A DNA stretch of 64,000 nt. Source: a virus. The stretch lies in the IMG/VR virus record IMGVR_UViG_3300000976_000009, positions 141,151 through 205,150 of that record; one strand, 5' to 3'. The position numbers and the translations under genes were made by a program. Positions 13,127 to 56,246 of the stretch are shown here, piece after piece. Positions within the stretch are counted from its first letter, which is position 1. Each line of letters opens with the position of its first letter. The notes under the pieces are model-generated. The model made no database searches, had not been told where the DNA came from, and saw only the letters and a program-made list of their open reading frames with translations.

Positions 13127-13298
13127 GCTTGCTAATTAAAAAACTTTTAGTATCTTTGTAATAGTTATTTTCGATTAATTGGAGACGTAATAGTTACCAA
13201 AATAGTCAAGGTATGTTTAATGAAGAAGAAGGGTAAAACCTTCAATTTATAAGAAACTAAAAAAGCCTTGACTATCCAGTCAAGGCTTTTTTTTTTTT
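13127..13298 (+). promoter_or_regulatory. promoter plus attenuator 1 (leader frame ..SINWRRNSYQNSQGMFNEEEG*)
   Basis: TATCTTTG 13151; TAGTCAAGGT 13203-13212 complementary to terminator 5' arm GCCTTGACTA; terminator 13261-13298. Confidence 0.7.
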
Positions 13299-14789: not shown

Positions 14790-15221
14790 ATGGGCAAACT
14801 ATCAGAAGAATTAATAGGAAAAATTAAGGATTATTATAATGAGGGTAATTCTTGTCAGAAGACAGCCGATAAATTCGGTGTGGGTAAAACAACGGTTAGG
14901 TCTTATGTGGATATAAGGGTTAAAAGAAAAAGAAGTGATGAGGAAATCAGAGCGGCTAGGGTTGAGGCTGTACAAAGACGTAGACATAAAGTAAAACAAA
15001 TGGCAATCGATTATAAAGGTGGTTGTTGTCAAGAATGTGGATATGATAAATATAATGGGGCTCTTGAGTTCCACCACCTAGACCCAAACGAAAAGGATTT
15101 TTCACTAGGTTATAAAGGTCATTGTACCGCATGGGAAAAAGTAAAAAAAGAATTAGATAAGTGTGTATTATTATGTTCAAATTGTCATAAAGAAGTACAC
15201 GCTAGTTTAATTAAAATATAG
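14790..15221 (+). CDS. HNH endonuclease with N-terminal HTH
   Basis: CQECG, LEFHH, LLCSNCHKEVH. Confidence 0.85.
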   Translation: MGKLSEELIGKIKDYYNEGNSCQKTADKFGVGKTTVRSYVDIRVKRKRSDEEIRAARVEAVQRRRHKVKQMAIDYKGGCCQECGYDKYNGALEFHHLDPNEKDFSLGYKGHCTAWEKVKKELDKCVLLCSNCHKEVHASLIKI

Positions 15222-15526: not shown

Positions 15527-15838
15527 ATGATGGGAAAGACATATAAAAAAGCAAAAAAGGAAATTGAACTCGTATTATCTAGACACCCAGAATACGATGG
15601 GTTTGAAGTTAAATTCTGGGGAAGTAGAATGTTCATTAGAGACCCAAAGGGTTGGTCATTTTCATTTCATTTCGATGAATGCCCAATTTATAGATTCGAT
15701 ATTATGCCACCAAAAGATGGTACAGAAAGAAAAAATGGTTGGGGTGGATATAAATTATTTCTTAAACCAGATGATTATAAAATAGGTCGTGATAGGAAAC
15801 CTTGGTTATTTGGTAATGAAATTCCTATTAAAAATTAA
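15527..15838 (+). CDS. hypothetical protein
   Basis: ORF between tRNAs. Confidence 0.6.
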   Translation: MMGKTYKKAKKEIELVLSRHPEYDGFEVKFWGSRMFIRDPKGWSFSFHFDECPIYRFDIMPPKDGTERKNGWGGYKLFLKPDDYKIGRDRKPWLFGNEIPIKN

Positions 15839-15839
15839 T

Positions 15840-15882
15840 ACCTCCGTAGTTCAACGGATAGAATATGGGTTTCCTAAACCAT
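15840..15882 (+). pseudogene. 5' half of tRNA-Arg (CCT)
   Basis: D arm and TTCCTAA loop, no T arm or acceptor 3' strand. Confidence 0.65.
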
Positions 15883-15917
15883 TTGCAATTTTCGGAACGT
15901 TCTGTATATTTATTAAT

Positions 15918-16361
15918 ATGGAAAAGAAATGTACAAAATGTGGTGAGATTAAATCTTTAGAAGATTTTGCTTATAAGAACAAACCGAAAGGGGTTAAAAA
16001 ACCACATTGTAAAGAATGTGATAAAATAGCTAGAAGACAATACTATTTAGATAATAAAGAAAGGATTGTAGAGGATATCCTTATAAGGAATAAAGAAAAG
16101 AAGAAAAGGAATTACACATTCCTACATAAATATTTAGAAACACATCACTGTATTGATTGTGGAAATGATAACCCAATAGTATTGGAGTTTGACCACAGAG
16201 ATGGTGTTGATAAGATTGATAGTATTAGTAAAATGTGTAGTGAGGGTAGGGGTATTGAATCGATTAAAAGGGAAATTGATAAATGTGATGTTAGATGCTC
16301 CAACTGTCATAAAATTAGAACAGCTAAACAGATGAATTGGTTTAGTTACTTAGACTTATAG
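15918..16361 (+). CDS. HNH / endonuclease VII-like homing endonuclease
   Basis: CTKC, CKEC, CIDCG, LEFDH, RCSNCH. Confidence 0.85.
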   Translation: MEKKCTKCGEIKSLEDFAYKNKPKGVKKPHCKECDKIARRQYYLDNKERIVEDILIRNKEKKKRNYTFLHKYLETHHCIDCGNDNPIVLEFDHRDGVDKIDSISKMCSEGRGIESIKREIDKCDVRCSNCHKIRTAKQMNWFSYLDL

Positions 16362-42746: not shown

Positions 42747-42830
42747 ATGCAAACAATTGTAAACATATTAACACTTAACTTAGTCTTATGCCTAGTGGTA
42801 TTAGACGGGTCGAGCTATGTGTTTATGTAA
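42747..42830 (+). CDS. leader peptide MQTIVNILTLNLVLCLVVLDGSSYVFM
   Basis: 27 codons, Leu/Val/Cys cluster, overlaps antiterminator. Confidence 0.8.
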   Translation: MQTIVNILTLNLVLCLVVLDGSSYVFM

Positions 42831-42886
42831 GTATAGAAAACTTAAACATATTTAAGCTCGATTCGTAACTGAATCGAGCTTTTTTT
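42810..42886 (+). promoter_or_regulatory. attenuator 2
   Basis: TCGAGCTATGTGTTTA pairs with TAAACATAT..AGCTCGA; terminator AAGCTCGATTC/GAATCGAGCTT plus U-tract. Confidence 0.85.
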
Positions 42887-42899
42887 ATGTATAATAAAT

Positions 42900-42983
42900 G
42901 CCTATGTGCTTGAGTGGTCGAAAAGTGCGGTCTGCAAAACCGTAAGGGAAACCTCATCGTTGGTTCGAATCCAACCATAGGCT
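42900..42983 (+). tRNA. tRNA-Cys (GCA), long variable arm
   Basis: GCGGT CTGCAAA ACCGT, U73. Confidence 0.85.
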
Positions 42984-42999
42984 CAAAAATAAAACAATA

Positions 43000-43071
43000 G
43001 GTCGGGGTGACCGAATGTTTAGGTAGTTAGCTGCAACCCTCCTTATGCTGGTTAGATTCCATTCCCCGACT
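43000..43071 (+). tRNA. tRNA-Cys (GCA), degenerate
   Basis: loop CTGCAAC, weak anticodon stem. Confidence 0.5.
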
Positions 43072-43240
43072 CTACAATAATGTAATAACTAAAAATGAGG
43101 GTTATGAAACAGGGGTAACAAATAAGACTAGAGAATTTAGAAAACAATTCTTAGTCGAACGAGAACACACAGGAAGAGAAATAGTCACTTTCTGGGAAAC
43201 GGGTAAATCATATTTTATTGAATATATTGAACCGAGAAGC

Positions 43241-43447
43241 ATGAATAAGAGTGGTTGGGGTGATATTGACCCAGCGACTAAAAAGGTAACTGGTTCTTAT
43301 GGTAATAAGTACAAAGGTGCAATTAAAGCAGATGAATCTATGATTACTAAAGAGAATGGCTTCGAAAATATTATTGAAGGAATGGGTTCTCCATATGCAC
43401 AAATTGAATGGATGCATAATAAATGGAAAACTGAAAATGGATACTAA
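43241..43447 (+). CDS. hypothetical protein; frame open upstream to about 43070
   Basis: ORF WGDIDP..GSYG.KYKG. Confidence 0.6.
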   Translation: MNKSGWGDIDPATKKVTGSYGNKYKGAIKADESMITKENGFENIIEGMGSPYAQIEWMHNKWKTENGY

Positions 43448-43619
43448 AAATGGATACATTAAGAAGTATAAAATTGACTAGAGAACAAAAAAAAGAAATA
43501 AGGAAAATAGTCAATAGATACATGAGGAAGCAAAGAAATCGAAAGATTAGACAACTAAAAGAATGGTTGGTGCTTCATAAGAATTAAATAAAGTGGAAGG
43601 TTGTAATTCCTTCCAATAT

Positions 43620-43691
43620 TGGAGTATAGCTCAGCTGGAGAGCGGGTGTGTTACATGCACTAGGTCGGGGGTTCGAATCCCCCTACTCCAA
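43620..43691 (+). tRNA. tRNA-Val (TAC)
   Basis: GGTGT GTTACAT GCACT. Confidence 0.85.
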
Positions 43692-43698
43692 CTAAAAT

Positions 43699-43770
43699 GC
43701 TCTGTGGGTGTGATGGTTAGCATACTTGTTTTACATGCAAGTTGAGTAGGTTCGATTCCTACACAGAGTA
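43699..43770 (+). tRNA. tRNA-Val (TAC)
   Basis: CTTGT TTTACAT GCAAG. Confidence 0.88.
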
Positions 43771-43777
43771 CAAATAT

Positions 43778-43858
43778 GGGGATGTGGCGAAATGGTTCAC
43801 GCAGCGGTTTTAGAAACCGTATCTTAATTGACTGTGGGTTCGAATCCCACCATCCCTA
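43778..43858 (+). tRNA. tRNA-Leu (TAG)
   Basis: GCGGT TTTAGAA ACCGT. Confidence 0.88.
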
Positions 43859-43872
43859 CTAAAAATTTATAT

Positions 43873-43952
43873 TGCGGGTGAGTGAAACGGATATATAAAT
43901 CATTCTGGGCTCATAACCCACGAGATACTAGGTTCGACTCCTAGACCCGCTA
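43873..43952 (+). tRNA. tRNA-fMet (CAT)
   Basis: TGGG CTCATAA CCCA, 1:72 mismatch. Confidence 0.8.
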
Positions 43953-43958
43953 CAAGAT

Positions 43959-44029
43959 GGTTCCATAGTTTAATGGGAGAACGTCACCTTGACATGGTGA
44001 TAGCGAAGGTTCGATTCCTTCTGGAATCA
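43959..44029 (+). tRNA. tRNA-Val (GAC)
   Basis: TCACC TTGACAT GGTGA. Confidence 0.92.
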
Positions 44030-44044
44030 CAAATAGTACTACAC

Positions 44045-44133
44045 GGGGGTGTGGGCAAATTGGAAAAGTCAGTGGGTTTAAGCCCCACGGTAAACGTAAG
44101 ATACATCTGCGGGTTCGAGTCCCGCCACCCCTA
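44045..44133 (+). tRNA. tRNA-Leu (TAA)
   Basis: GTGGG TTTAAGC CCCAC. Confidence 0.85.
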
Positions 44134-44145
44134 CTAACTATTCAT

Positions 44146-44233
44146 TGCGGGGTAGTGTAATTGGTAACATGCTGGGCTCATAACCCAGAGAAGCGGTAAC
44201 ACCGTGTTCTAGGTTCAACTCCTAGCCCCGCTA
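44146..44233 (+). tRNA. tRNA-fMet (CAT), long variable arm
   Basis: CTGGG CTCATAA CCCAG. Confidence 0.8.
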
Positions 44234-44239
44234 CAAGAT

Positions 44240-44324
44240 GGTCGCATGGTGGAATTGGTAGACACGCCAGACTTAAAATCTGGTGCCCATTACGGGCGTG
44301 TGGGTTCGACTCCCACTGCGACTA
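44240..44324 (+). tRNA. tRNA-Leu (TAA)
   Basis: CCAGA CTTAAAA TCTGG. Confidence 0.93.
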
Positions 44325-44350
44325 CAAGGGGTTCGAAGTACAAGAACCTT

Positions 44351-44434
44351 GGCGATATGGTGAAACTGGTAAACACAGCCTCGGATGGGGCGGGGTTTGA
44401 CTCCCCACTGTTGGTTCGACTCCAACTATCGCCA
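44351..44434 (+). ncRNA. tRNA-Leu-like body with tetraloop instead of anticodon loop
   Basis: Leu-type D arm and long arm; GCCTC GGAT GGGGC. Confidence 0.65.
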
Positions 44435-44437
44435 CAA

Positions 44438-44524
44438 AGGATGATTACAGCAAATGTAACTAGGTTAAAAAACATGATTCAAACTCAAGTTCAGATGGTT
44501 CAAATCCATTAAATTCATCATCCT
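44438..44524 (+). ncRNA. stem-CAGCAA element 4 with D-like, CAA and T arms
   Basis: AGGATGAT-TACAGCAAA..TGA TTCAAAC TCA..ATGG TTCAAAT CCAT..ATCATCCT-G. Confidence 0.7.
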
Positions 44525-44530
44525 GTCCAT

Positions 44531-44614
44531 CCCCAAGTGGTGGAATTGGTAGACACGCTGTCCTAAGAAGGCAGTGCTAGTAATAGCGTGTGGGTTCGAC
44601 TCCCACCTTGGGGA
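44531..44614 (+). tRNA. tRNA-Leu (AAG)
   Basis: CTGTC CTAAGAA GGCAG. Confidence 0.85.
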
Positions 44615-44619
44615 CAAAT

Positions 44620-44701
44620 GGGGGTATGGCGGAACGGTATACGCAGCAGTTTCAAAAACTGTGGTCCTAGAGACATGTGGGTTCGACTCCCATTACCCTT
44701 A
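44620..44701 (+). tRNA. tRNA-Leu (CAA)
   Basis: GCAGT TTCAAAA ACTGT. Confidence 0.88.
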
Positions 44702-44743
44702 CTAAAATTAGGGGTTCTAATTTATTTAACTTATATTTGTATT

Positions 44744-44905
44744 ATGAATGATGAATTTTATAGTTTGGTTATGTTTCCTTATCCATCTGGTGATGGATTA
44801 CATGTTGGTCATTATTATAATTATGCGATTATGGATTCATTTAATCGTTGGAAGAGTATAAAGGAATTAAGGTGTTTCAACCATTTTAAAATGGTTTATC
44901 CCTAA
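44744..44905 (+). pseudogene. leuS: leucyl-tRNA synthetase N-terminal fragment
   Basis: MFPYPSGDGLHVGH; alternate frame gives YKGIKVFQPF then stop. Confidence 0.75.
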
Positions 44906-44948
44906 TTTTTAATATTTATTAGTATAATATATTTCTAAAATAATTAAG

Positions 44949-45197
44949 ATGGGAAAATTTGAAAAAAAGGGTTATAATATATTTGCTAGGATAAGTTCAT
45001 TGTTTACATTTGTGTTTGGATTAATTGCTACTATAGCATTTTGGGTATTCATAGCACAAGGTGATGTATTTGATAGTTTGTATCCAGCAATTGGTATGTT
45101 TATAGCATCACATGGGGCATTGATTGGTATAATATTTTATGAAATCATGCATTATACTGGTAAATCATTCACAGAATTATTTAAAAAAAACCACTAA
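44949..45197 (+). CDS. small membrane protein
   Basis: two TM segments. Confidence 0.6.
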   Translation: MGKFEKKGYNIFARISSLFTFVFGLIATIAFWVFIAQGDVFDSLYPAIGMFIASHGALIGIIFYEIMHYTGKSFTELFKKNH

Positions 45198-45299
45198 ACA
45201 TTTGGTTTAGCGGAATATTATTACTATATTTGAATAAGAAAGCTGATTCAATTGATATTTATAATTGAGTTTGTTTAGGTTAAACTAAAACATAAAAGT

Positions 45300-45614
45300 A
45301 TGGAAATGATAACATCAATTTTATTAGTAATGTTAGTCGCAATTAGAATTATTGAATGTTATTTATTTGTTAGAAAAGTGAGTAAAACATGTCGTGCATA
45401 TGATATGAAACACATTGAAACTAATGAGCTACTACTTTTGGAGATGTTAGAAAGTAAAGATTATTACACAACTAGTAATTGGTCAGCATATAACTTCTTA
45501 TACTTAAAGGGTCCAAACCCTTTAAGCTTGTTTTTTTCTTTAAAACCTATTACCATTGAAGCTCAATATAATAAAGAGGTTGTAGAGAAATTGAACAAAT
45601 ATGAAATTAACTGA
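45300..45614 (+). CDS. hypothetical protein
   Basis: N-terminal TM. Confidence 0.55.
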   Translation: MEMITSILLVMLVAIRIIECYLFVRKVSKTCRAYDMKHIETNELLLLEMLESKDYYTTSNWSAYNFLYLKGPNPLSLFFSLKPITIEAQYNKEVVEKLNKYEIN

Positions 45615-46248
45615 GGCATATAATAAAGTCATTCTAGATGAGTTCTGGAATGGATTAGAAGAAGAACTCCAATTAGATGAATCCGATAGTGGATTAAAAA
45701 ACTTAATTGGTCAAGCAAATGAAATTATATTCGAAAAATTTCAAATTAATCCAGTTGATAGAGAATACTGTATAGTTGGTTCAGCAAGATTATACTTATA
45801 CCCACAACTTAGAGATGCCTTTGGTTTAGAAGGAACAATTGGTGACCTAGATATGGTTATACCAGATAAAAAACATTGGATTCAAGCTGGATTAGAAGAA
45901 AATTGGAATAAAGGTGGTATATATAGACCAACTGATGATGGTTCTATTGAAGCATTTAATGTGTGGGACCCAGCAAGAGCTGGTGGAGAATATGCAGATG
46001 TCCAAGTTAGGTCAACCCAAGAGGTAGTTAAAGATGGTACATTAATTAATGGATATTATTTTATGTCATTACAGGACATTATCGATTATAAAATGTCTAT
46101 GAATAGAGAGAAGGAACAAGATGTAGTTAGTCTTATTTCAGCATACCAAAAGAGTGGTTCTTCAAACAGAATGGATTTACTTAGGAGAATGGCTAAAGTC
46201 ATTGGGTTTGATAAAACTAAAGAATTTTTAGGTAGGGTAGGTAAATAA
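45601..46248 (+). CDS. nucleotidyltransferase-like protein
   Basis: IVGSA.L..GDLD..K..MNREK. Confidence 0.55.
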   Translation: MKLTEAYNKVILDEFWNGLEEELQLDESDSGLKNLIGQANEIIFEKFQINPVDREYCIVGSARLYLYPQLRDAFGLEGTIGDLDMVIPDKKHWIQAGLEENWNKGGIYRPTDDGSIEAFNVWDPARAGGEYADVQVRSTQEVVKDGTLINGYYFMSLQDIIDYKMSMNREKEQDVVSLISAYQKSGSSNRMDLLRRMAKVIGFDKTKEFLGRVGK

Positions 46249-46405
46249 TTAAAAAAAATACTCTTAAAATACAATAAAAATAAGGGTTTTGAAAAAAAAA
46301 TAAAAAAAAATAGTGAAAAAACTTGCCATTTAATAAAAGTTTTGTATCTTTGTACCATACTTATAAACAACGAGACTAAATTTAGTCTTACAAAAATAAA
46401 AAAAA

Positions 46406-46495
46406 ATGAACACATTAATTAACATATTTGAATTTAGCTTTGAAGCTGCCGAGGATGATTGCATCTTGGGAAGGTCAAGTTATGTCAAAAGTTAA
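46406..46495 (+). CDS. leader peptide MNTLINIFEFSFEAAEDDCILGRSSYVKS
   Basis: 29 codons, Phe/Glu/Ala/Asp cluster, overlaps antiterminator. Confidence 0.8.
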   Translation: MNTLINIFEFSFEAAEDDCILGRSSYVKS

Positions 46496-46552
46496 GTGTT
46501 AAAAAACATAAACTAAACATTACAAGCCTTCCAGAAACGGAAGGCTTTTTTT
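46469..46552 (+). promoter_or_regulatory. attenuator 3
   Basis: GGAAGGT pairs GCCTTCC; terminator AAGCCTTCC/GGAAGGCTT plus U-tract. Confidence 0.82.
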
Positions 46553-46562
46553 ATGCACATAT

Positions 46563-46634
46563 GTGACCTTGGAAGCAGCGGTACTTCGCTTGGTTGAAGC
46601 CCAAGAAAGCTCGGTTCGAATCCGAGAGGTCACA
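46563..46634 (+). tRNA. tRNA-Phe (GAA)
   Basis: CTTGG TTGAAGC CCAAG. Confidence 0.88.
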
Positions 46635-46639
46635 CACAT

Positions 46640-46712
46640 AGCCCCATCGACTAGCGGTCAAGGTCGCCACCCTCTCAAGGTGGAAACATCGGTTCGAATC
46701 CGATTGGGGTCA
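46640..46712 (+). tRNA. tRNA-Glu (CTC)
   Basis: CCACC CTCTCAA GGTGG. Confidence 0.88.
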
Positions 46713-46747
46713 CTAAGATTTAGTTCTTTGACATATTGAAATGATTT

Positions 46748-46819
46748 GGTGCGGTAGCTCAGAGGTAGAGCAGTAGGTTGAAAACTTACGTGTCGGGGGT
46801 TCGAATCCCTCTCGTACCA
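46748..46819 (+). tRNA. tRNA-Phe (GAA)
   Basis: GTAGG TTGAAAA CTTAC. Confidence 0.92.
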
Positions 46820-46825
46820 CAAAAT

Positions 46826-46900
46826 GCTCGGTTCGTCTAACGGCTAGGACGGGTGGTTTTCAGCCATCAAATAGGGGTTCGATTCCCCTACCGAGTACCA
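46826..46900 (+). tRNA. tRNA-Glu (TTC)
   Basis: loop TTTTCAG, encoded CCA. Confidence 0.9.
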
Positions 46901-46948
46901 AGTGTCAGTTTCTAGTGGTTCTGAACGAAATAAAATTTCACTAATTTT

Positions 46949-47020
46949 CGCCCGTTCGTCTAACGGTTAGGACGTTAGGTTTTCAACCTAAAAATAGGAG
47001 TTCGATTCTCCTACGGGTGA
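46949..47020 (+). tRNA. tRNA-Glu (TTC)
   Basis: TTAGG TTTTCAA CCTAA. Confidence 0.92.
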
Positions 47021-47090
47021 CTATGTTAATAAACACTGCAATGTTTATTACAGAAACCAATGAACTATTTGCAGATAGGTAAGTTGGTTT

Positions 47091-47161
47091 TGAATGTTCG
47101 TCTAGCGGTTAGGATACTGCCCATTACGGGTGGAGACACGGGTTCGAATCCCGTACATTTA
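47091..47161 (+). tRNA. Glu/Asp-body tRNA with aberrant loop CATTACG
   Basis: TCGTCTAGCGGTTAGGA D arm, perfect T arm, no U33. Confidence 0.55.
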
Positions 47162-47232
47162 ACAAACGCCCGTTGAGATATTACGAATCGATAGGGAGAA
47201 TGAGTATGACTGTTAGGAAAGACTAACAATAT

Positions 47233-47307
47233 GGTCCAGTGGACGAAATTGGTTTAGTCGTCACCCTTTCAAGGTGAAGGTTGCGGGTTCGATTCCCGTC
47301 TGGACTA
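47233..47307 (+). tRNA. tRNA-Glu (TTC)
   Basis: TCACC CTTTCAA GGTGA. Confidence 0.92.
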
Positions 47308-47318
47308 CTAAAAACTAC

Positions 47319-47391
47319 GGTCTGTAGGTCAAATGGTTAAGATGCCTCCCTGTCACGGAGAGCGGAGCGGGTTCGACTCCCGTATGGACCG
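47319..47391 (+). tRNA. tRNA-Asp (GTC)
   Basis: CTCC CTGTCAC GGAG, G73. Confidence 0.9.
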
Positions 47392-47399
47392 CAAAGTAA

Positions 47400-47470
47400 C
47401 GTCCATTGGTGTAATGGTAACATGACTGGTTGTCTCCCAGTTGCTAAGGGTTCGATTCCCTTATGGACGG
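47400..47470 (+). tRNA. tRNA-Asp (GTC)
   Basis: ACTGG TTGTCTC CCAGT. Confidence 0.82.
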
Positions 47471-47481
47471 CATAATCACAC

Positions 47482-47554
47482 GGCTGGTGTGGTGTAACGG
47501 TAGCATACTTCCCTGTCACGGAAGAGGTTCGGGGTTCGAATCCCCCATCAGCCG
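47482..47554 (+). tRNA. tRNA-Asp (GTC)
   Basis: CTTCC CTGTCAC GGAAG. Confidence 0.88.
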
Positions 47555-47561
47555 CAATAAT

Positions 47562-47637
47562 GGTCTAGTGAGCCCCATTGGTAGGGGATTTGCACTGTCT
47601 CTGCTCAAAAACGAGGGTTCGACCCCCTCCTAGACCC
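47562..47637 (+). tRNA. tRNA-Asp-like (GTC)
   Basis: GCA CTGTCTC TGC. Confidence 0.6.
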
Positions 47638-47640
47638 CAT

Positions 47641-47710
47641 GAAGTCATAGTTTAGTGCAAGAACGCCACTTAGACGGGTGGAAATACGAGTTGGATTCTC
47701 GTTGACTTTA
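47641..47710 (+). tRNA. degenerate tRNA, identity unclear
   Basis: cloverleaf with irregular anticodon loop. Confidence 0.45.
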
Positions 47711-47720
47711 CAAATATTTT

Positions 47721-47797
47721 GGGGGCACATGTCCCAAGGCTGGCGAGGTAGGTTTGCACCTTCCCTGTGGTGGGTTCGATTCCCACTGTCTCCACCA
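47721..47797 (+). tRNA. tRNA-Ala (TGC)
   Basis: G3:U70, loop TTTGCAC, encoded CCA. Confidence 0.82.
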
Positions 47798-47809
47798 AAA
47801 TAACATAAT

Positions 47810-47882
47810 GGGGCTATGGTGAAACTGGCTATCATCGTTGACTTGCACTCAGCAGTTCCGAGTTCGAACCTCGGTAGCTCCA
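47810..47882 (+). tRNA. tRNA-Ala (TGC)
   Basis: G3:U70, GTTGA CTTGCAC TCAGC. Confidence 0.9.
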
Positions 47883-47883
47883 C

Positions 47884-48048
47884 ATGAATGATAAATTTAT
47901 TAAAGATGTTGATTATTATATTAAAGATGGTAATCTAATAATGACAAAATCTTACCACATTAAACGAGGACAATGCTGTGGTAATAATTGTAAACATTGT
48001 CCATTTAACCCAAGATATACAAAAGGGGTGAGAGAAATTAAAAACTAA
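47884..48048 (+). CDS. small Cys-rich protein, DUF5522-like
   Basis: HIKRGQCCGNNCKHCPF. Confidence 0.65.
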   Translation: MNDKFIKDVDYYIKDGNLIMTKSYHIKRGQCCGNNCKHCPFNPRYTKGVREIKN

Positions 48049-48130
48049 TAAAAATGAAAGAATTGGAGGCGATAAGCTAAAGAGAATCGAAGAGAGTAAA
48101 AATAATGTCGGTTCTCGCAACGATAGAAAG

Positions 48131-48550
48131 TTGAAGAAATACTCTCAGAAGTTTAACAAGATGTTTGATTTCTATTTAAAAGTATACAGAAGCGGACTAA
48201 TCATATTTTGTGGTGTTGGTGTAGAAGTAGATTCTGATATTAATGGTTCAGATGGTAAGTTTGGATTCAGAGAATATGATAATGGTAGATTTAAGTTTAA
48301 GACACCAATCACCAGACACCCTAATATATTAAGAGGGGTGATTACTGGAAAGAAAGGTTGGGGACTTTGGGTTGAACAATGGTCACAAGGGATTGTTGAT
48401 TGGTCATTCACAAAAGAAGAAATACTTAAAGAATTTACTGATAGAGATATAGAAATACCAGAACCTTTAATGAAGGAATGGGATAAATTAATTGAGAGAA
48501 AGAAAAAGAAGCGTAACTCAGATTATTTTGATGAGTTACAAAATAAGTAA
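48131..48550 (+). CDS. hypothetical protein
   Basis: ORF. Confidence 0.55.
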   Translation: MKKYSQKFNKMFDFYLKVYRSGLIIFCGVGVEVDSDINGSDGKFGFREYDNGRFKFKTPITRHPNILRGVITGKKGWGLWVEQWSQGIVDWSFTKEEILKEFTDRDIEIPEPLMKEWDKLIERKKKKRNSDYFDELQNK

Positions 48551-48554
48551 TAAT

Positions 48555-48678
48555 GGACGTATGGTGTAATGGTAGCACGGTTTAAAAAAGGTAATCTGAT
48601 TACTAAAGATTATTTTCAGCAACATATACAAATTTGCCTGTCACGCAAGAGGTGGGGGTTCGATTCCCTCTACGTCCG
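48555..48678 (+). tRNA. tRNA-Asp (GTC) with 53-nt stem-CAGCAA insertion between D and anticodon arms
   Basis: all four arms present; insert 48580-48632. Confidence 0.75.
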
Positions 48679-48710
48679 CAACATTTCAATATTAGGGGAT
48701 ATTTATTAGT

Positions 48711-52144: not shown

Positions 52145-52652
52145 TTTTTAAAATAAACTTGCAAGTTTGAAATATTAATTATAAATTTGCACAGTTAGAA
52201 ATAACAAAACGTTTTTTGAAATCTTGGAGTAATTAAAAATAATGTTTGGTAGTACAAAGATAGAGCGGTGCTCGGTAGGTACATTAACGAGGTAGGGACC
52301 AAATACATATACAGAATGCAGTTCTATTTGTCTTGCAAGACTAGAACAGGTAAACATTATCCCCTTAATTGGATTAGTGTAGGTTAAAATGGTGGTTCAA
52401 ATCCCTCATTCTGTGCAAAATTGGGGTGTTGGTCGCACAGGTCCTTGACGGACTGTTATTCTAGATGTGCATTGTGGTTCGATTCCACGTACCCCAGCAA
52501 GTCTCAGTTAGAAATGACAATAATTAAATTAATAAGGTTGAACCCCTTAACCACTTAGACAGACAGAGACAGGTTCTGTAAGTAAATTATGAGGAATAGT
52601 AGGTATAGTTTATTCTAGGCTCTGCGGGAAGTGCACTTCTACTAGAATGCTT

Positions 52653-52725
52653 GGTGACGTAGCTCAGTTGGTAGAGCAATGGATTGAAGCTCCATGTGTC
52701 GCTGGTTCGAATCCAGCCGTCACCA
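52653..52725 (+). tRNA. tRNA-Phe (GAA)
   Basis: ATGGA TTGAAGC TCCAT. Confidence 0.93.
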
Positions 52726-52869
52726 CGAAATCTTGCCTATATCAGCACCGCTAGTTTTATAGGATAGTTAAATACCTACCCCGTGCAGAAACGATTGCAG
52801 TCGTCTGTGGTAGAGGTGTTTATAAAATACGATATAGGACTGAGACGAGCGGGAAAACCTATATCACAT

Positions 52870-52982
52870 GGAAAGGTAGCTCAGATAGGTATATAGTAGA
52901 TAACATGTTATTAGATGATATACTTCGGTAGAGCAATGGGTTGAACACTCATGTGTCGTTAGTTCGAATCTAACCCTTTCCA
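52870..52982 (+). tRNA. tRNA-Phe-like with ~40-nt hairpin in D loop
   Basis: GCTC..GAGC D stem, ATGGG TTGAACA CTCAT. Confidence 0.65.
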
Positions 52983-53493
52983 CAGGTCTGGATGAATGTT
53001 ACAAGAGACGGAGCTTTTTAAATGTCTAAACAGTAACCACGTTTGATTTTCGTGATGAACTAATCTGCTGGGTAGTGCCCAAAAGAAAAACCACTACATG
53101 GGGAAAATCCAGAAGTAACTGGTAAATCGGCTGGCGTTAATCGCACGGAATCAAGTCGTAATTAGGGTGAACAAAAATCCGTTATACCTTAAGATTGTAA
53201 GTTAAAATCTTACTTTCTCCACAAGTTCGCTCCACGCTGGGGAGATTTGTTTCTTATCTCCTATGATGAGGCAGAACACCAAAATATCAGCTGAGAAGTG
53301 TGATTGAGGTTATTACTGTAGAAAAACAGGTGCAAGCAACTTTACTAAAACATCTCTTATGGAGGTTTGGTTCATACGAATAGATATTGTTCTATTGAAG
53401 GTACAGTTTGGGCTAAAAACATCATATAAGAGTTCTCGGAAGTTTGAGAAGACGTAATTTTAAAAGAGATGACATCGGGAAAGACTGAAATTT

Positions 53494-53654
53494 GGGTTGG
53501 GAGTTACGATTGGTTGAATGGTTCCTATTAGTACGGAACACCAAGGCAGAACATTAGTTTATTTGAGTGGCTTAAGACACGAAATGATTTAGGTGGGTCT
53601 GTATTAGGTTCGGGCGAATCCCGAAGGTTGCTGGTTCGAATCCAGTTCAATCCA
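53494..53654 (+). ncRNA. enlarged tRNA-like RNA
   Basis: GGGTTGG/TCAATCC-A, T arm GCTGG TTCGAAT CCAGT. Confidence 0.5.
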
Positions 53655-53778
53655 CGAATCTCAATACACATAGTCAGTGTATTAAATGTTGCATAACAGA
53701 CTCAGTTAAAAAAATGAGAGAGCAACGGAAGGAAAGTTTTCGCAAACCTACTTAGCTTTTGTAAGGTAAAAGCAACTT

Positions 53779-53829
53779 GGGGGTGTAACCAATTGTGGGT
53801 TATTGATGGGGCAATACCATCCACCTCCA
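53779..53829 (+). ncRNA. 51-nt mini-RNA copy 3
   Basis: GGGGGTG/CACCTCC-A (G3:U70), ATTG and CAATA loops. Confidence 0.6.
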
Positions 53830-54282
53830 CAACTAACCACCAATGCCTCTGCTAGCATGCACAATTTTGGTATCGAAGGAAAACTAGTTAGTACTGAGAC
53901 AGAGTTAAGCGATTCTCTAGGGTAGTTAAAATCGCAAATGGGGTTATCACGCCTTTTGGATTACGTTGGAAAGTTACAACCAACGCCTTTGGGTAATATT
54001 GGTAAGTCGGTAACATATTATAAGGTGTACATAAATGTACTAGTTACACACTACTTGTAATGTAAGAATGATAATGTTGGTTCGAGTCCAACTAATCCCA
54101 CTAGTGGTAGTTTGATTGAATGCTTGGGTCGCTCTTAAGTTGAAGGTTAAATATTACTTGCTCGAAGGGTCGCTCCCAAAGAGTCCCTTAGAAGTTCAAT
54201 TGGCTGAACGCCCTCTCGATGGGGGAGGCTGAGGGTTCGAACCCCGTCTAAGGTACAAAGAAGCTAAACGTATAATAGCTTT

Positions 54283-54366
54283 GGTGATATAGAGCAGTTG
54301 GTAGCTCAGTTGGCGAGGGAGTAATTCCGAACCGAAAGGTCATAGGTTCGACTCCTATTATCACTA
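54283..54366 (+). ncRNA. tRNA-like RNA with GNRA hairpin replacing anticodon
   Basis: fMet-like D arm; GGGA GTAA TTCC. Confidence 0.65.
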
Positions 54367-54397
54367 CAAGCGTGTCCCAACACGTTAATAAGGTTAA

Positions 54398-54514
54398 AAA
54401 ATTGTTACAGCAAATGTAAAAACTTGTATGTGAAACAACAGGACTAGGTTCGAATCCTAGCATAGAGATGGGAACTATGTGGTGTAATGGTAGCATTGAT
54501 AAAAAAGCAATTTT
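54398..54514 (+). ncRNA. circularly permuted tRNA (GTG) closed by stem-CAGCAA element
   Basis: order: anticodon arm, T arm, CATAG/CTATG acceptor hairpin, D arm; AAAATTGT/GCAATTTT closing stem. Confidence 0.72.
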
Positions 54515-54734
54515 GCCCTTTATGGAGTAAGTGTATGTCTGTCATAATTCGTATGAGTTATGATTTTGGGTTCGATTCCCATTTACCCCACAATATTAGT
54601 GGTGAGTCCTACTTAGCCTATTTTCATAGGGGTACAGGTACTTAATGAATGTATAACAGCTACTAATTTTTGAGATGGCTAGGAATGCGTGGAGTCATGA
54701 CCACAATGGGAGTTCAATTCGACCACATCTCACT

Positions 54735-54989
54735 AAAGAATGAGAGCCCAATTGGGTAACTCGCAGTGCGTTTAACAGACCAACTGACACACGTTTGAGT
54801 GGTAGTAATTACCCACGATAATTTTATACCTCTATCATCTGGTAACACTAGTGTTACCTTGTGAAACGTATAGTTGTGAAGGGACTGTGTGCCGAATCTT
54901 GAATTCCGTGACTTGGGATAGGGGTGTCAACACATGGGTTAAGGTAAGCCAGTCGGTTTAGTCACCGAGAAATTGTTATCTCATTCTTT
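54735..54989 (+). ncRNA. unassigned ~255-nt structured RNA
   Basis: 11-bp closing stem AAAGAATGAGA/TCTCATTCTTT, no ORF. Confidence 0.5.
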
Positions 54990-54994
54990 TTAAT

Positions 54995-55135
54995 AGGGAA
55001 GTAGCTCAGTTGTTTAGAGCGTGTGGAAAGCAACCTTAGCTTAGATTATATCTAAGTATCCGAAAGGGTATTCCGTTAGGAAATAAGGTTTGGTTGTGAG
55101 TACCAAGGTCGTTGGTTAGAGTCCAACCTTCTCTA
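54995..55135 (+). ncRNA. tRNA-like RNA with multibranch domain replacing anticodon
   Basis: acceptor, D and T arms intact; three internal hairpins. Confidence 0.6.
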
Positions 55136-55160
55136 CTAATAATAAATAAATTAGTTAACT

Positions 55161-55370
55161 ATGAGTAAAGTAACAGTAATTTTAAATCGTGTAAATTCAG
55201 AAGCACAAGGTGGTTTTGATAAAGAGGTAATTACATTAGCTATAGACCCAAACTGGTCAATTCCAGCAGTACATAGGGTAAATGGTCATAATTATGAGGC
55301 TAGACAAAAAGGTCAAGAAGGTGGTGTTGTAACATATTCTTTGTGTGATTCTGCTATTCCACAAGATTAA
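55161..55370 (+). CDS. hypothetical protein
   Basis: ORF. Confidence 0.55.
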   Translation: MSKVTVILNRVNSEAQGGFDKEVITLAIDPNWSIPAVHRVNGHNYEARQKGQEGGVVTYSLCDSAIPQD

Positions 55371-55372
55371 AA

Positions 55373-55462
55373 TGGGTCTCAGAGTGCCAGCTCCTATAGA
55401 ACCTCCCCAGAGGCGGAAGCAAGCAAGGATATATGGTTGTAGCGGTAGTTCTGAGTAACCTA
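55373..55462 (+). ncRNA. ffs: SRP (4.5S-like) RNA
   Basis: long hairpin with CAGA-G-GC-GGAA-GC-A-AGCA domain IV pattern and distal TGTAGC. Confidence 0.7.
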
Positions 55463-55601
55463 TTTAAGATAATGTCGTTCCCTTAGCGGGGTTCATGTGC
55501 TTATGACGAATACCCAGTGTGGTCGCTTAATTGAAGTTCGTTAGACTATTTTTTAGATGTTGTTCTTTCGTGGTCTTAAAATATGAAGGGAAAAACATTT
55601 T

Positions 55602-55810
55602 AATTGGAGATTTGAACATATAGAGTTCAAGGGTCTTACCTTCCGTGATGGTGACTAATTCGGAGAGCGAAAACGAGAGTAGCTAGACCCTACAAACAGA
55701 AGAATGTTAAATCTATTAGTAAGTCATAGTCTTTGCTGACAATGGGTGCTAATATGTCTGGGCTACGTAGCAGACGTTTAGGTATGAGGGGCAGAACCTC
55801 ACTCCAGTTC
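55602..55810 (+). ncRNA. unassigned ~210-nt RNA with tRNA-like 3' end
   Basis: AATTGGAG/CTCCAGTT plus TGAGG GGCAGAA CCTCA. Confidence 0.45.
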
Positions 55811-56246
55811 AATTGGTGAGAGATACCAATAAAGTTTACAAGGTACTTCAAAAACTTGAGGCTGATATACCCACGGTCATACAGAGGGGTCTGATTGGAA
55901 TATGGGTATTACTAAACCCACCACAGCGATAGTTGACTTTTTATTGGTAGTAAGACACCATTTGTTTTTGAAAAGGAAAAACATTGAACATCTAGCATAC
56001 GGAATCTCAATATGTGACATTGGTTAAAGGAGATTGATTTCGACTTTAACCACATAAATGTGAAAAGAGTGCGCTCGATGATATTAATATCATAATTAAC
56101 ATAGACGGGTTCGACCAGAGGCTGGCATGAGATGTAGGTTTAAGAAAGGTGATAAACACGGATTAGTTCCGACCTATTATTAATTAACGTTAGGACTACC
56201 AATATTTCACATAAAAAATAATTATAACCATTAAATAAATAAAACA

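Follow-up and report, generated by a model that had tools for sequence, protein, structure and literature searches.

In module 3 of a virus genome, an array of tRNA genes for Phe, Glu, Asp and Ala is headed by a short leader ORF, an antiterminator strand and an intrinsic terminator. The module is probably a ribosome-coupled transcription attenuator: the array would be transcribed when codons matching its tRNAs are decoded slowly, and tRNA supply would thereby be under negative feedback. Such a switch had been proposed in the first-pass annotation of this DNA, and it was upheld in all computational tests, namely those of ORF conservation, of covariation, of the geometry of the switch and of the match between leaders and arrays at unrelated loci, and in the controls with host genomes and with the genome itself. 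The module lies in a stretch of 64,000 nucleotides (hereafter the window) of a virus record of 353,143 bases with direct terminal repeats and 31.7% G+C. Bacteroidota-type promoters are present all along the virus genome and no gene for an RNA polymerase beta subunit was found in it, so that the leader would be transcribed by the host polymerase. ARAGORN called 45 genes in the window, a tmRNA among them, and the window also encodes a CCA-adding enzyme and two RNA ligases. A contig from run X1, the likely source sample, corresponds to window positions 42959-48700 with zero differences, and leader 3 is therefore not an assembly artefact. No cultured close relative was found: blastn and tblastn searches of the phage collection with the array, the leader region and the leader peptide yielded nothing beyond chance matches and matches at the level of tRNAs, and the matches of the CCA-adding enzyme in that collection were all below 60% identity.

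Some other parts of the window also deserve mention. Protein genes at 14790-15221 (an HNH endonuclease) and 15789-16361 interrupt the first tRNA array, and about 4 kb at 52180-56200 are nearly free of ORFs and contain tRNA-like genes, a Bacteroidales small SRP RNA at 55363-55469, and much unexplained structured sequence. Outside the window, directly after the Gln-containing array, there is a 530-aa ORF (G000:C1:210982-212574), the start of which we take to resemble a Gln-tRNA synthetase.

Table 1. Features of module 3 and location of its sister modules (window positions, except for module 4)
Feature	Position	Strand	Remarks
Sister module 1: promoter, 3' half of Ser/Ile/Asn/Trp/Arg/His/Met leader, terminator	13127..13296	+	5' half missing from record
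Sister module 2: Leu/Val/Cys leader (42747-42830) and terminator (42854-42881), ahead of Cys/Val/Leu array	42747..42886	+	
Predicted Bacteroidota sigma-A promoter	46323..46352	+	TTG at 46323-46325; -7 box TATCTTTG at 46345-46352; predicted start near 46357
Small 5' hairpin in untranslated leader	46372..46389	+	Fold prediction; A-rich run between hairpin and ATG
Leader ORF, 29 codons, ATG-TAA, MNTLINIFEFSFEAAEDDCILGRSSYVKS	46406..46495	+	23 distinct orthologous ORFs of 26-32 codons
Sensor block, leader codons 8-18	46427..46459	+	10/11 codons Phe/Glu/Ala/Asp
1:2 hairpin (predicted pause/anti-antiterminator) over last sensor codons	46449..46470	+	-10 kcal/mol, z -2.5
Antiterminator strand GGAAGGT	46469..46475	+	Pairs with 46526-46532 (terminator 5' arm); antiterminator fold -16.9 kcal/mol, z -4.1
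Intrinsic terminator, 9-bp stem + U7	46524..46552	+	Stem 46524-46547, U-tract to 46552; -14.1 kcal/mol, z -4.3
tRNA-Phe(GAA), atypical D arm	46563..46635	+	Below Rfam gathering
tRNA-Glu(CTC)	46640..46713	+	ARAGORN, Rfam
tRNA-Phe(GAA)	46748..46820	+	ARAGORN, Rfam
tRNA-Glu(TTC)	46826..46900	+	ARAGORN, Rfam
tRNA-Glu(TTC)	46949..47021	+	ARAGORN, Rfam
Odd tRNA-like gene, Glu-type D arm	47091..47163	+	Non-canonical anticodon loop (called TTA)
tRNA-Glu(TTC)	47233..47308	+	ARAGORN, Rfam
tRNA-Asp(GTC) x3 (47319, 47400, 47482)	47319..47555	+	ARAGORN, Rfam
Fourth tRNA-Asp(GTC), weak	47562..47638	+	Relaxed ARAGORN threshold only
Odd tRNA-like gene, 8-base anticodon loop	47641..47711	+	Similar gene in L151 array
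tRNA-Ala(TGC) x2 (47723, 47810)	47723..47883	+	47723 below Rfam gathering
Module 4, ahead of Pro/Gln/Tyr/Thr/Gly/Lys array, just past window	G000:C1:205706-205880		Start codon absent here

The features of module 3 are listed in Table 1. The accessible text of PMC9723704 positions the Bacteroidota -7 consensus at -12 to -5. Hairpins like the one in the untranslated leader are present in many orthologues. The codons reported in the first-pass annotation to precede GGAAGGT (TTT GAA TTT AGC TTT GAA GCT GCC GAG GAT GAT) were located at 46427-46459, in frame, as codons 8-18 of the leader. Phe, Glu, Asp and Ala (F/E/D/A) codons have a genome-wide frequency of 0.23 against 10/11 in this block, which also holds a Ser codon left without remark in the first-pass annotation, and none of the 94,346 windows of 11 codons from all ORFs of the genome reached 10 F/E/D/A codons; the composition of the sensor block is not due to chance. 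The leader 3 peptide had no Pfam match, and no Rfam or Pfam family was assigned to the leader at cut-off.

The array behind leader 3 contains 12 Phe/Glu/Asp/Ala tRNA genes: two Phe(GAA), three Glu(TTC), one Glu(CTC), four Asp(GTC), and two Ala(TGC). The inventory claimed previously agrees with the ARAGORN calls for all 12 named tRNAs, the fourth Asp being called at the relaxed threshold only, and it had omitted the two odd tRNA-like genes at 47091 and 47641. Three of the 12 tRNAs (46563, 47562, and 47723) score below the Rfam gathering threshold. Both odd genes have abnormal anticodon loops and resemble each other in their anticodon arms, and they may be decoys or specialised tRNAs. Neither a complete promoter nor a terminator was found within the array in addition to those ahead of it. 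Beyond the array, at window positions 48555-48678, Rfam but not ARAGORN finds a tRNA-Asp-like gene in which about 50 inserted bases precede the anticodon arm.

Leaders orthologous to leader 3 were collected by a motif search that returned 28 viral and 117 metagenome stretches (the metagenome scan covering 16 of 64 parts). Those with a short leader plus tRNA were retained (22/28 viral and 11/117 metagenome), yielding 23 distinct ORFs including that of the window, and the others (6/28 and 106/117) were dropped. The ATG, the stop codon and a single frame are kept in 23/23 leaders, and their length differences consist of whole codons. Since the search motif fixes four codons (A-E-x-D), only codons outside the motif were counted: F/E/D/A codons account for 154/165 from codon 8 up to the motif, 16/138 in codons 2-7, and 28/262 after the motif. 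Downstream of these leaders, 144 of the 153 named tRNAs are F/E/D/A (8 unnamed ones and one called "Stop" excluded), and the extra tRNAs of some arrays (Lys, Thr, Val, Pro, and Cys) are without counterpart codons in their leaders. Single-base differences among the leaders comprise 175 synonymous and 256 non-synonymous changes, and the leader peptide itself is therefore weakly conserved. The order and number of F/E/D/A residues also differ between orthologous leaders, which argues for composition rather than a fixed peptide sequence; in arrest-peptide leaders (tnaC and ermC type), stalling needs such a sequence together with a ligand in the tunnel.

The RNA elements are kept as well. MAFFT misaligned the terminators and RNAalifold consequently recovered only the 1:2 hairpin, so cross-pairing energies were used instead. 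In 17 sequences, the leader tail pairs with its own terminator arm at -10.7 kcal/mol against -8.0 with other arms (0/100,000 permutations, a value that overstates independence because the orthologues are related), and in 7/17 orthologues the antiterminator pairing is no better than after random synonymous recoding (fraction 0.19-0.61). The 1:2 hairpin is kept among the orthologues, with 75.6% of cells paired versus 25-56% for slid registers and double-sided changes at only two pairs; it shares two bases with the antiterminator strand in the window and abuts that strand in most orthologues. When 78 terminators of the genome were ranked by antiterminator pairing, the four that precede tRNA arrays occupied ranks 1-4, the terminator of module 3 being fourth with an upstream antiterminator duplex of -12.0 kcal/mol (median -5.4).

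Terminator and antiterminator are mutually exclusive, as judged by folding and covariation, and the antiterminator helix is short (only 5-8 bp). The effect of a translating ribosome was modelled with an assumed footprint of 15 nt behind and 12 nt ahead of the P site, the bases beneath being blocked. With this footprint, a ribosome on the sensor codons leaves the antiterminator free and one further along blocks it; in the window, the antiterminator is predicted to be open with the ribosome through codon 19 and shut from codon 20. Among the 23 orthologue models, it forms in 21 when the codon immediately preceding the conserved Asp is in the A site, in 16 at +2, in three at +3, and in none from +4 to +11. 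The terminator wins outright in the equilibrium fold of the window, so that the switch would have to be kinetic. Timing would matter too, since the antiterminator re-forms in 6/23 models with the ribosome at the stop codon, that of the window among them, and forms in 17/23 ribosome-free models; the untranslated state is accordingly predicted to be "on".

The match between leader and array is at the level of the amino acid. Matching of anticodons was ruled out, since Glu(CTC) is present in only 2/23 arrays and Ala(GGC) in 0/23; the GCC codon is retained where its CC pairs inside the 1:2 hairpin. It had also been proposed that leaders 2 and 3 share a frame (MxT..NI...SSYV) and arose by duplication followed by reprogramming of the sensor codons. 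The frame is literally present in both leaders of the window, and the proposal of duplication stood in part. Codons 2-7 are alike between the two families (grouped by eye), with 63% identity of family 2 versus 3 compared with 56% within family 2, 79% within family 3, and a background of 37% (99th percentile, 61%), and the N-terminal motif was found at the start of 0/399 ORFs of the genome. SSYV was rejected as a sign of ancestry: it is not conserved, occurring in only one of the 23 family-3 leaders and, among five family-2 leaders, only in that of this genome. A common origin of the two families is plausible from these sequences, and a shared constraint on initiation could also account for their N-terminal likeness. 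Reprogramming received independent support from the cultured phage phi4:1 (see below), the three leaders of which follow another tRNA grouping.

Three sister modules accompany module 3 (Table 1), and together the four cover all 20 amino acids: S/I/N/W/R/H/M, C/V/L, F/E/D/A, and P/Q/Y/T/G/K. The 5' halves of leaders 1 and 4 are absent from this record. Contigs from two runs of the same sample contain about 62 extra letters at window position 13169, where the start codon of leader 1 is expected, which makes assembly loss likely for leader 1; its interpretation as a natural start-less mutant was discarded on the same ground. The gap at 13169 adjoins a promoter that is repeated at leader 4. Module 4 has 47 promoter bases in common with module 1 and a terminator loop in common with module 2, which suggests that sequence may have been exchanged among modules. 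All four modules are intact in three distinct relatives (G001, G002, and G004), and the leaders of a further one, G003, are those of G002.

The same layout was predicted in the cultured Cellulophaga phage phi4:1 (NC_021788.1; L409:8707-11560), where three leader attenuators split the tRNA array into P/E/Q/H/L/R, A/K/I/G/M/D/T/V/R (with a GTG start), and Y/S/N/W/F/C. These leaders lie at 87065-87133, 88025-88108 and 89771-89869 of NC_021788.1, and they match their own arrays by 10/11, 15/16 and 15/21 and the other arrays by 0-6. The first module is nearly leaderless, the GTG of the second leader lies within an annotated 39-aa gene, and the first and third leaders are unannotated in the phi4:1 record. 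Phage phi17:2 is 99.6% identical to phi4:1 across the first module. An unbiased pattern (promoter, U-tract and tRNA T-arm) that contained no leader information was then used on 16 of 64 parts of the viral sequences. It gave 121 matches. A tRNA was present in 56 of them, a terminator in 33, a leader ORF in 29, and an antiterminator duplex at or below -8 in 22; 41 loci had short flanks. The leader-array match was 0.371 versus 0.176 +/- 0.024 for shuffled pairs (0/100,000), and with one locus per family (n = 19, families grouped by eye) the result was 0/20,000 in each of 20 draws. A 7.8-kb contig from a Mollicutes assembly also carries a family-2 leader with Cys tRNAs (L198:1501-1881) and is likely a misbinned phage fragment.

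Bacterial genomes were surveyed as a control. The leader-terminator layout was found at 0/40 tRNA cluster heads of two Flavobacteriaceae genomes (30 from G006 and 10 picked from G007). The same general pattern, used on 2 of 64 parts of the prokaryote genomes, gave 120 matches, 43 with tRNA, 13 with a terminator and three with a leader ORF. One of these three leader loci, L254, is genuine and consists of a tandem pair of leader units ahead of Ile(TAT)/His/Tyr/Phe genes. The bacterial contig that carries it is 1.47 Mb long, and recC, recD and ECF sigma genes surround the locus. A search of 31 genomes gave units like those of L254 in nine of its 10 best loci. In the bacterial leaders, 144/385 codons are I/H/Q/Y/F versus 22.5% in flanking genes, and ATA accounts for 27/40 Ile codons versus 51/239. 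Single or tandem leader-antiterminator-terminator units were observed on bacterial chromosomes at L450/L451 (G008:C2:143749-144899) and at L452-L460; they have ATA-rich leaders and precede an extra Ile(TAT)/His/Gln/Tyr/Phe tRNA cluster. Since L254-type units lie on bacterial contigs, the idea of a "phage-only" control was abandoned: one bacterial group has leader units too. The phage modules may have come from host units of this kind.

On the attenuator reading, the host RNA polymerase would initiate at the sigma-A promoter and could pause at the 1:2 hairpin long enough for a ribosome to load, coupling of transcription and translation in the host being an assumption of the model. Fast reading of the Phe/Glu/Ala/Asp codons would bring the ribosome to codons 20-29 and cover GGAAGGT; the terminator would then fold and a transcript of about 195 nt would be released. 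A ribosome lingering at codons up to 18-19 would leave GGAAGGT free for pairing with the 5' arm of the terminator, and, with the antiterminator formed, the polymerase would read through into the tRNA genes. Their products would speed up decoding of the same codons, closing a negative feedback loop, and the four modules would divide the 20 amino acids between them. The most likely trigger would be the loss of usable tRNA during infection, through host anticodon nucleases, decay of host tRNA or heavy late demand. As a tentative extension, such modules of large Bacteroidota phages may form a complete tRNA homeostat, in which a few leader attenuators tile the code, each sensing the loss of its own tRNA group when the host cuts or degrades it and activating only the replacement array. 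The result would be a counter-defence that is inducible and resolved by codon, with leaders re-spelled each time tRNA genes are regrouped, and it would have counterparts on some bacterial chromosomes.

A clearly less probable alternative is that the same switch senses amino-acid starvation (low charging) or generally slow translation, grouping serving to spread the sensing over four promoters without any anti-defence role; since it uses the same switch, its probability overlaps with that of the main reading. A ribosome cannot distinguish a missing tRNA from an uncharged one, as in the classical attenuators treated in the accessible portions of PMC11857589 and PMC3082878, similar units are present in bacteria without phage genes nearby, and some groups (e.g., C/V/L) are partly like biosynthetic families. 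Against this, the groups vary by phage lineage and track tRNA genes rather than pathways, and the two RNA ligases, the CCA-adding enzyme and the tmRNA of the window fit repair or replacement of tRNA. We favour tRNA loss as the trigger because a shortage of amino acids would presumably not be cured by more tRNA and because phage tRNAs rescue from a tRNA-cleaving defence: according to the accessible text of PMC12409363, those of T5 counter the defence PARIS AriB and can replace lost host tRNA.

Two further explanations would dispense with sensing by a ribosome on the leader. The terminator could be a fixed leaky stop, or an antitermination protein of the phage could override it. The ORF would then yield a peptide or only protect the RNA, and its codons would exert no control over read-through; the dominance of the terminator in the equilibrium fold would fit this. 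This explanation is improbable, given that the codons of the leader follow the content of the array at unrelated loci and in different partitions, that the covariation of the leader tail with the terminator arm would be left unexplained, and that the end of the sensor block coincides with the modelled flip of the switch. Direct binding of uncharged tRNAs by the RNA, in the manner of a T-box and with the reading frame incidental, would agree with the position of codon-like triplets matching the downstream tRNAs, 5' of the antiterminator. We consider it highly improbable: no T-box match was obtained even at E 10, 23/23 orthologues keep ATG, stop and one frame, and a run of many codons is used instead of a single specifier.

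Leader-peptide attenuators of amino-acid operons include E. coli trpL, hisL, thrL and the ilvGMEDA leader, and E. coli pheM, the leader of pheST, attenuates a synthetase. T-boxes bind tRNA directly via one specifier codon and do not need translation. The attenuators of amino-acid operons resemble the phage leader, as predicted, in that a short ORF contains the regulatory codons, that antiterminator and U-tract terminator follow a 1:2 hairpin, and that a single leader covers several amino acids; in module 3, the short ORF lies between promoter and genes, and its regulatory codons match the identity of the tRNAs at the amino-acid level. They control biosynthetic enzymes, whereas the phage leader precedes tRNA genes, the product of which would restore decoding directly. 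The phage modules also differ in being viral and in tiling the whole code with several units, and the predicted "on" state of the untranslated leader is unlike trp. As with pheM, a leader peptide would attenuate the expression of something that supplies translation; pheM differs in its synthetase target, its single amino acid and its chromosomal location. As in T-boxes, tRNA status would set terminator versus antiterminator; the phage leaders differ in their conserved reading frame and in having no match to RF00230, which we take to be the T-box riboswitch. No sequence kinship to known leaders was found, the Rfam Phe_leader model scoring 26.9 bits against a cut-off of 55, over the terminator part only. 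The phage leader would work like the attenuators of amino-acid and synthetase operons (trpL, pheL, thrL, ilvL, and pheM) and is not a member of any of them.

Among published systems, pheL and IlvL (Corynebacterium ilvBNC) are described as leader-peptide attenuators in the accessible portions of PMC11857589 and PMC3082878, and leader attenuation is considered likely for amino-acid operons in Flavobacterium in that of PMC9723704. The T5 tRNAs acting against PARIS AriB resemble the arrays studied here in being phage tRNAs able to replace lost host tRNA, and differ in that the accessible text describes no sensor or on-demand expression (PMC12409363). Full-text literature searches, largely of the main texts of openly accessible papers, returned no description of tRNA genes, phage or bacterial, that are controlled by leader-peptide attenuation. 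A mechanism of a known kind with a new target (tRNA genes) and a code-tiling organisation is well supported at the level of sequence.

The purpose of phage tRNA genes is an old question, and most arguments about it invoke codon usage or resistance to nucleases of the host. The leaders imply that arrays would be expressed on demand, and they name the codons that the phage would monitor; the condition that raises read-through would be the condition for which the tRNAs are kept. The same design is predicted for a host-phage pair available in culture, that of Cellulophaga baltica and either phi4:1 or phi17:2. Classical attenuation would extend to feedback control of tRNA supply, and the leaders would provide compact reporters of the availability of tRNA groups in Bacteroidota.
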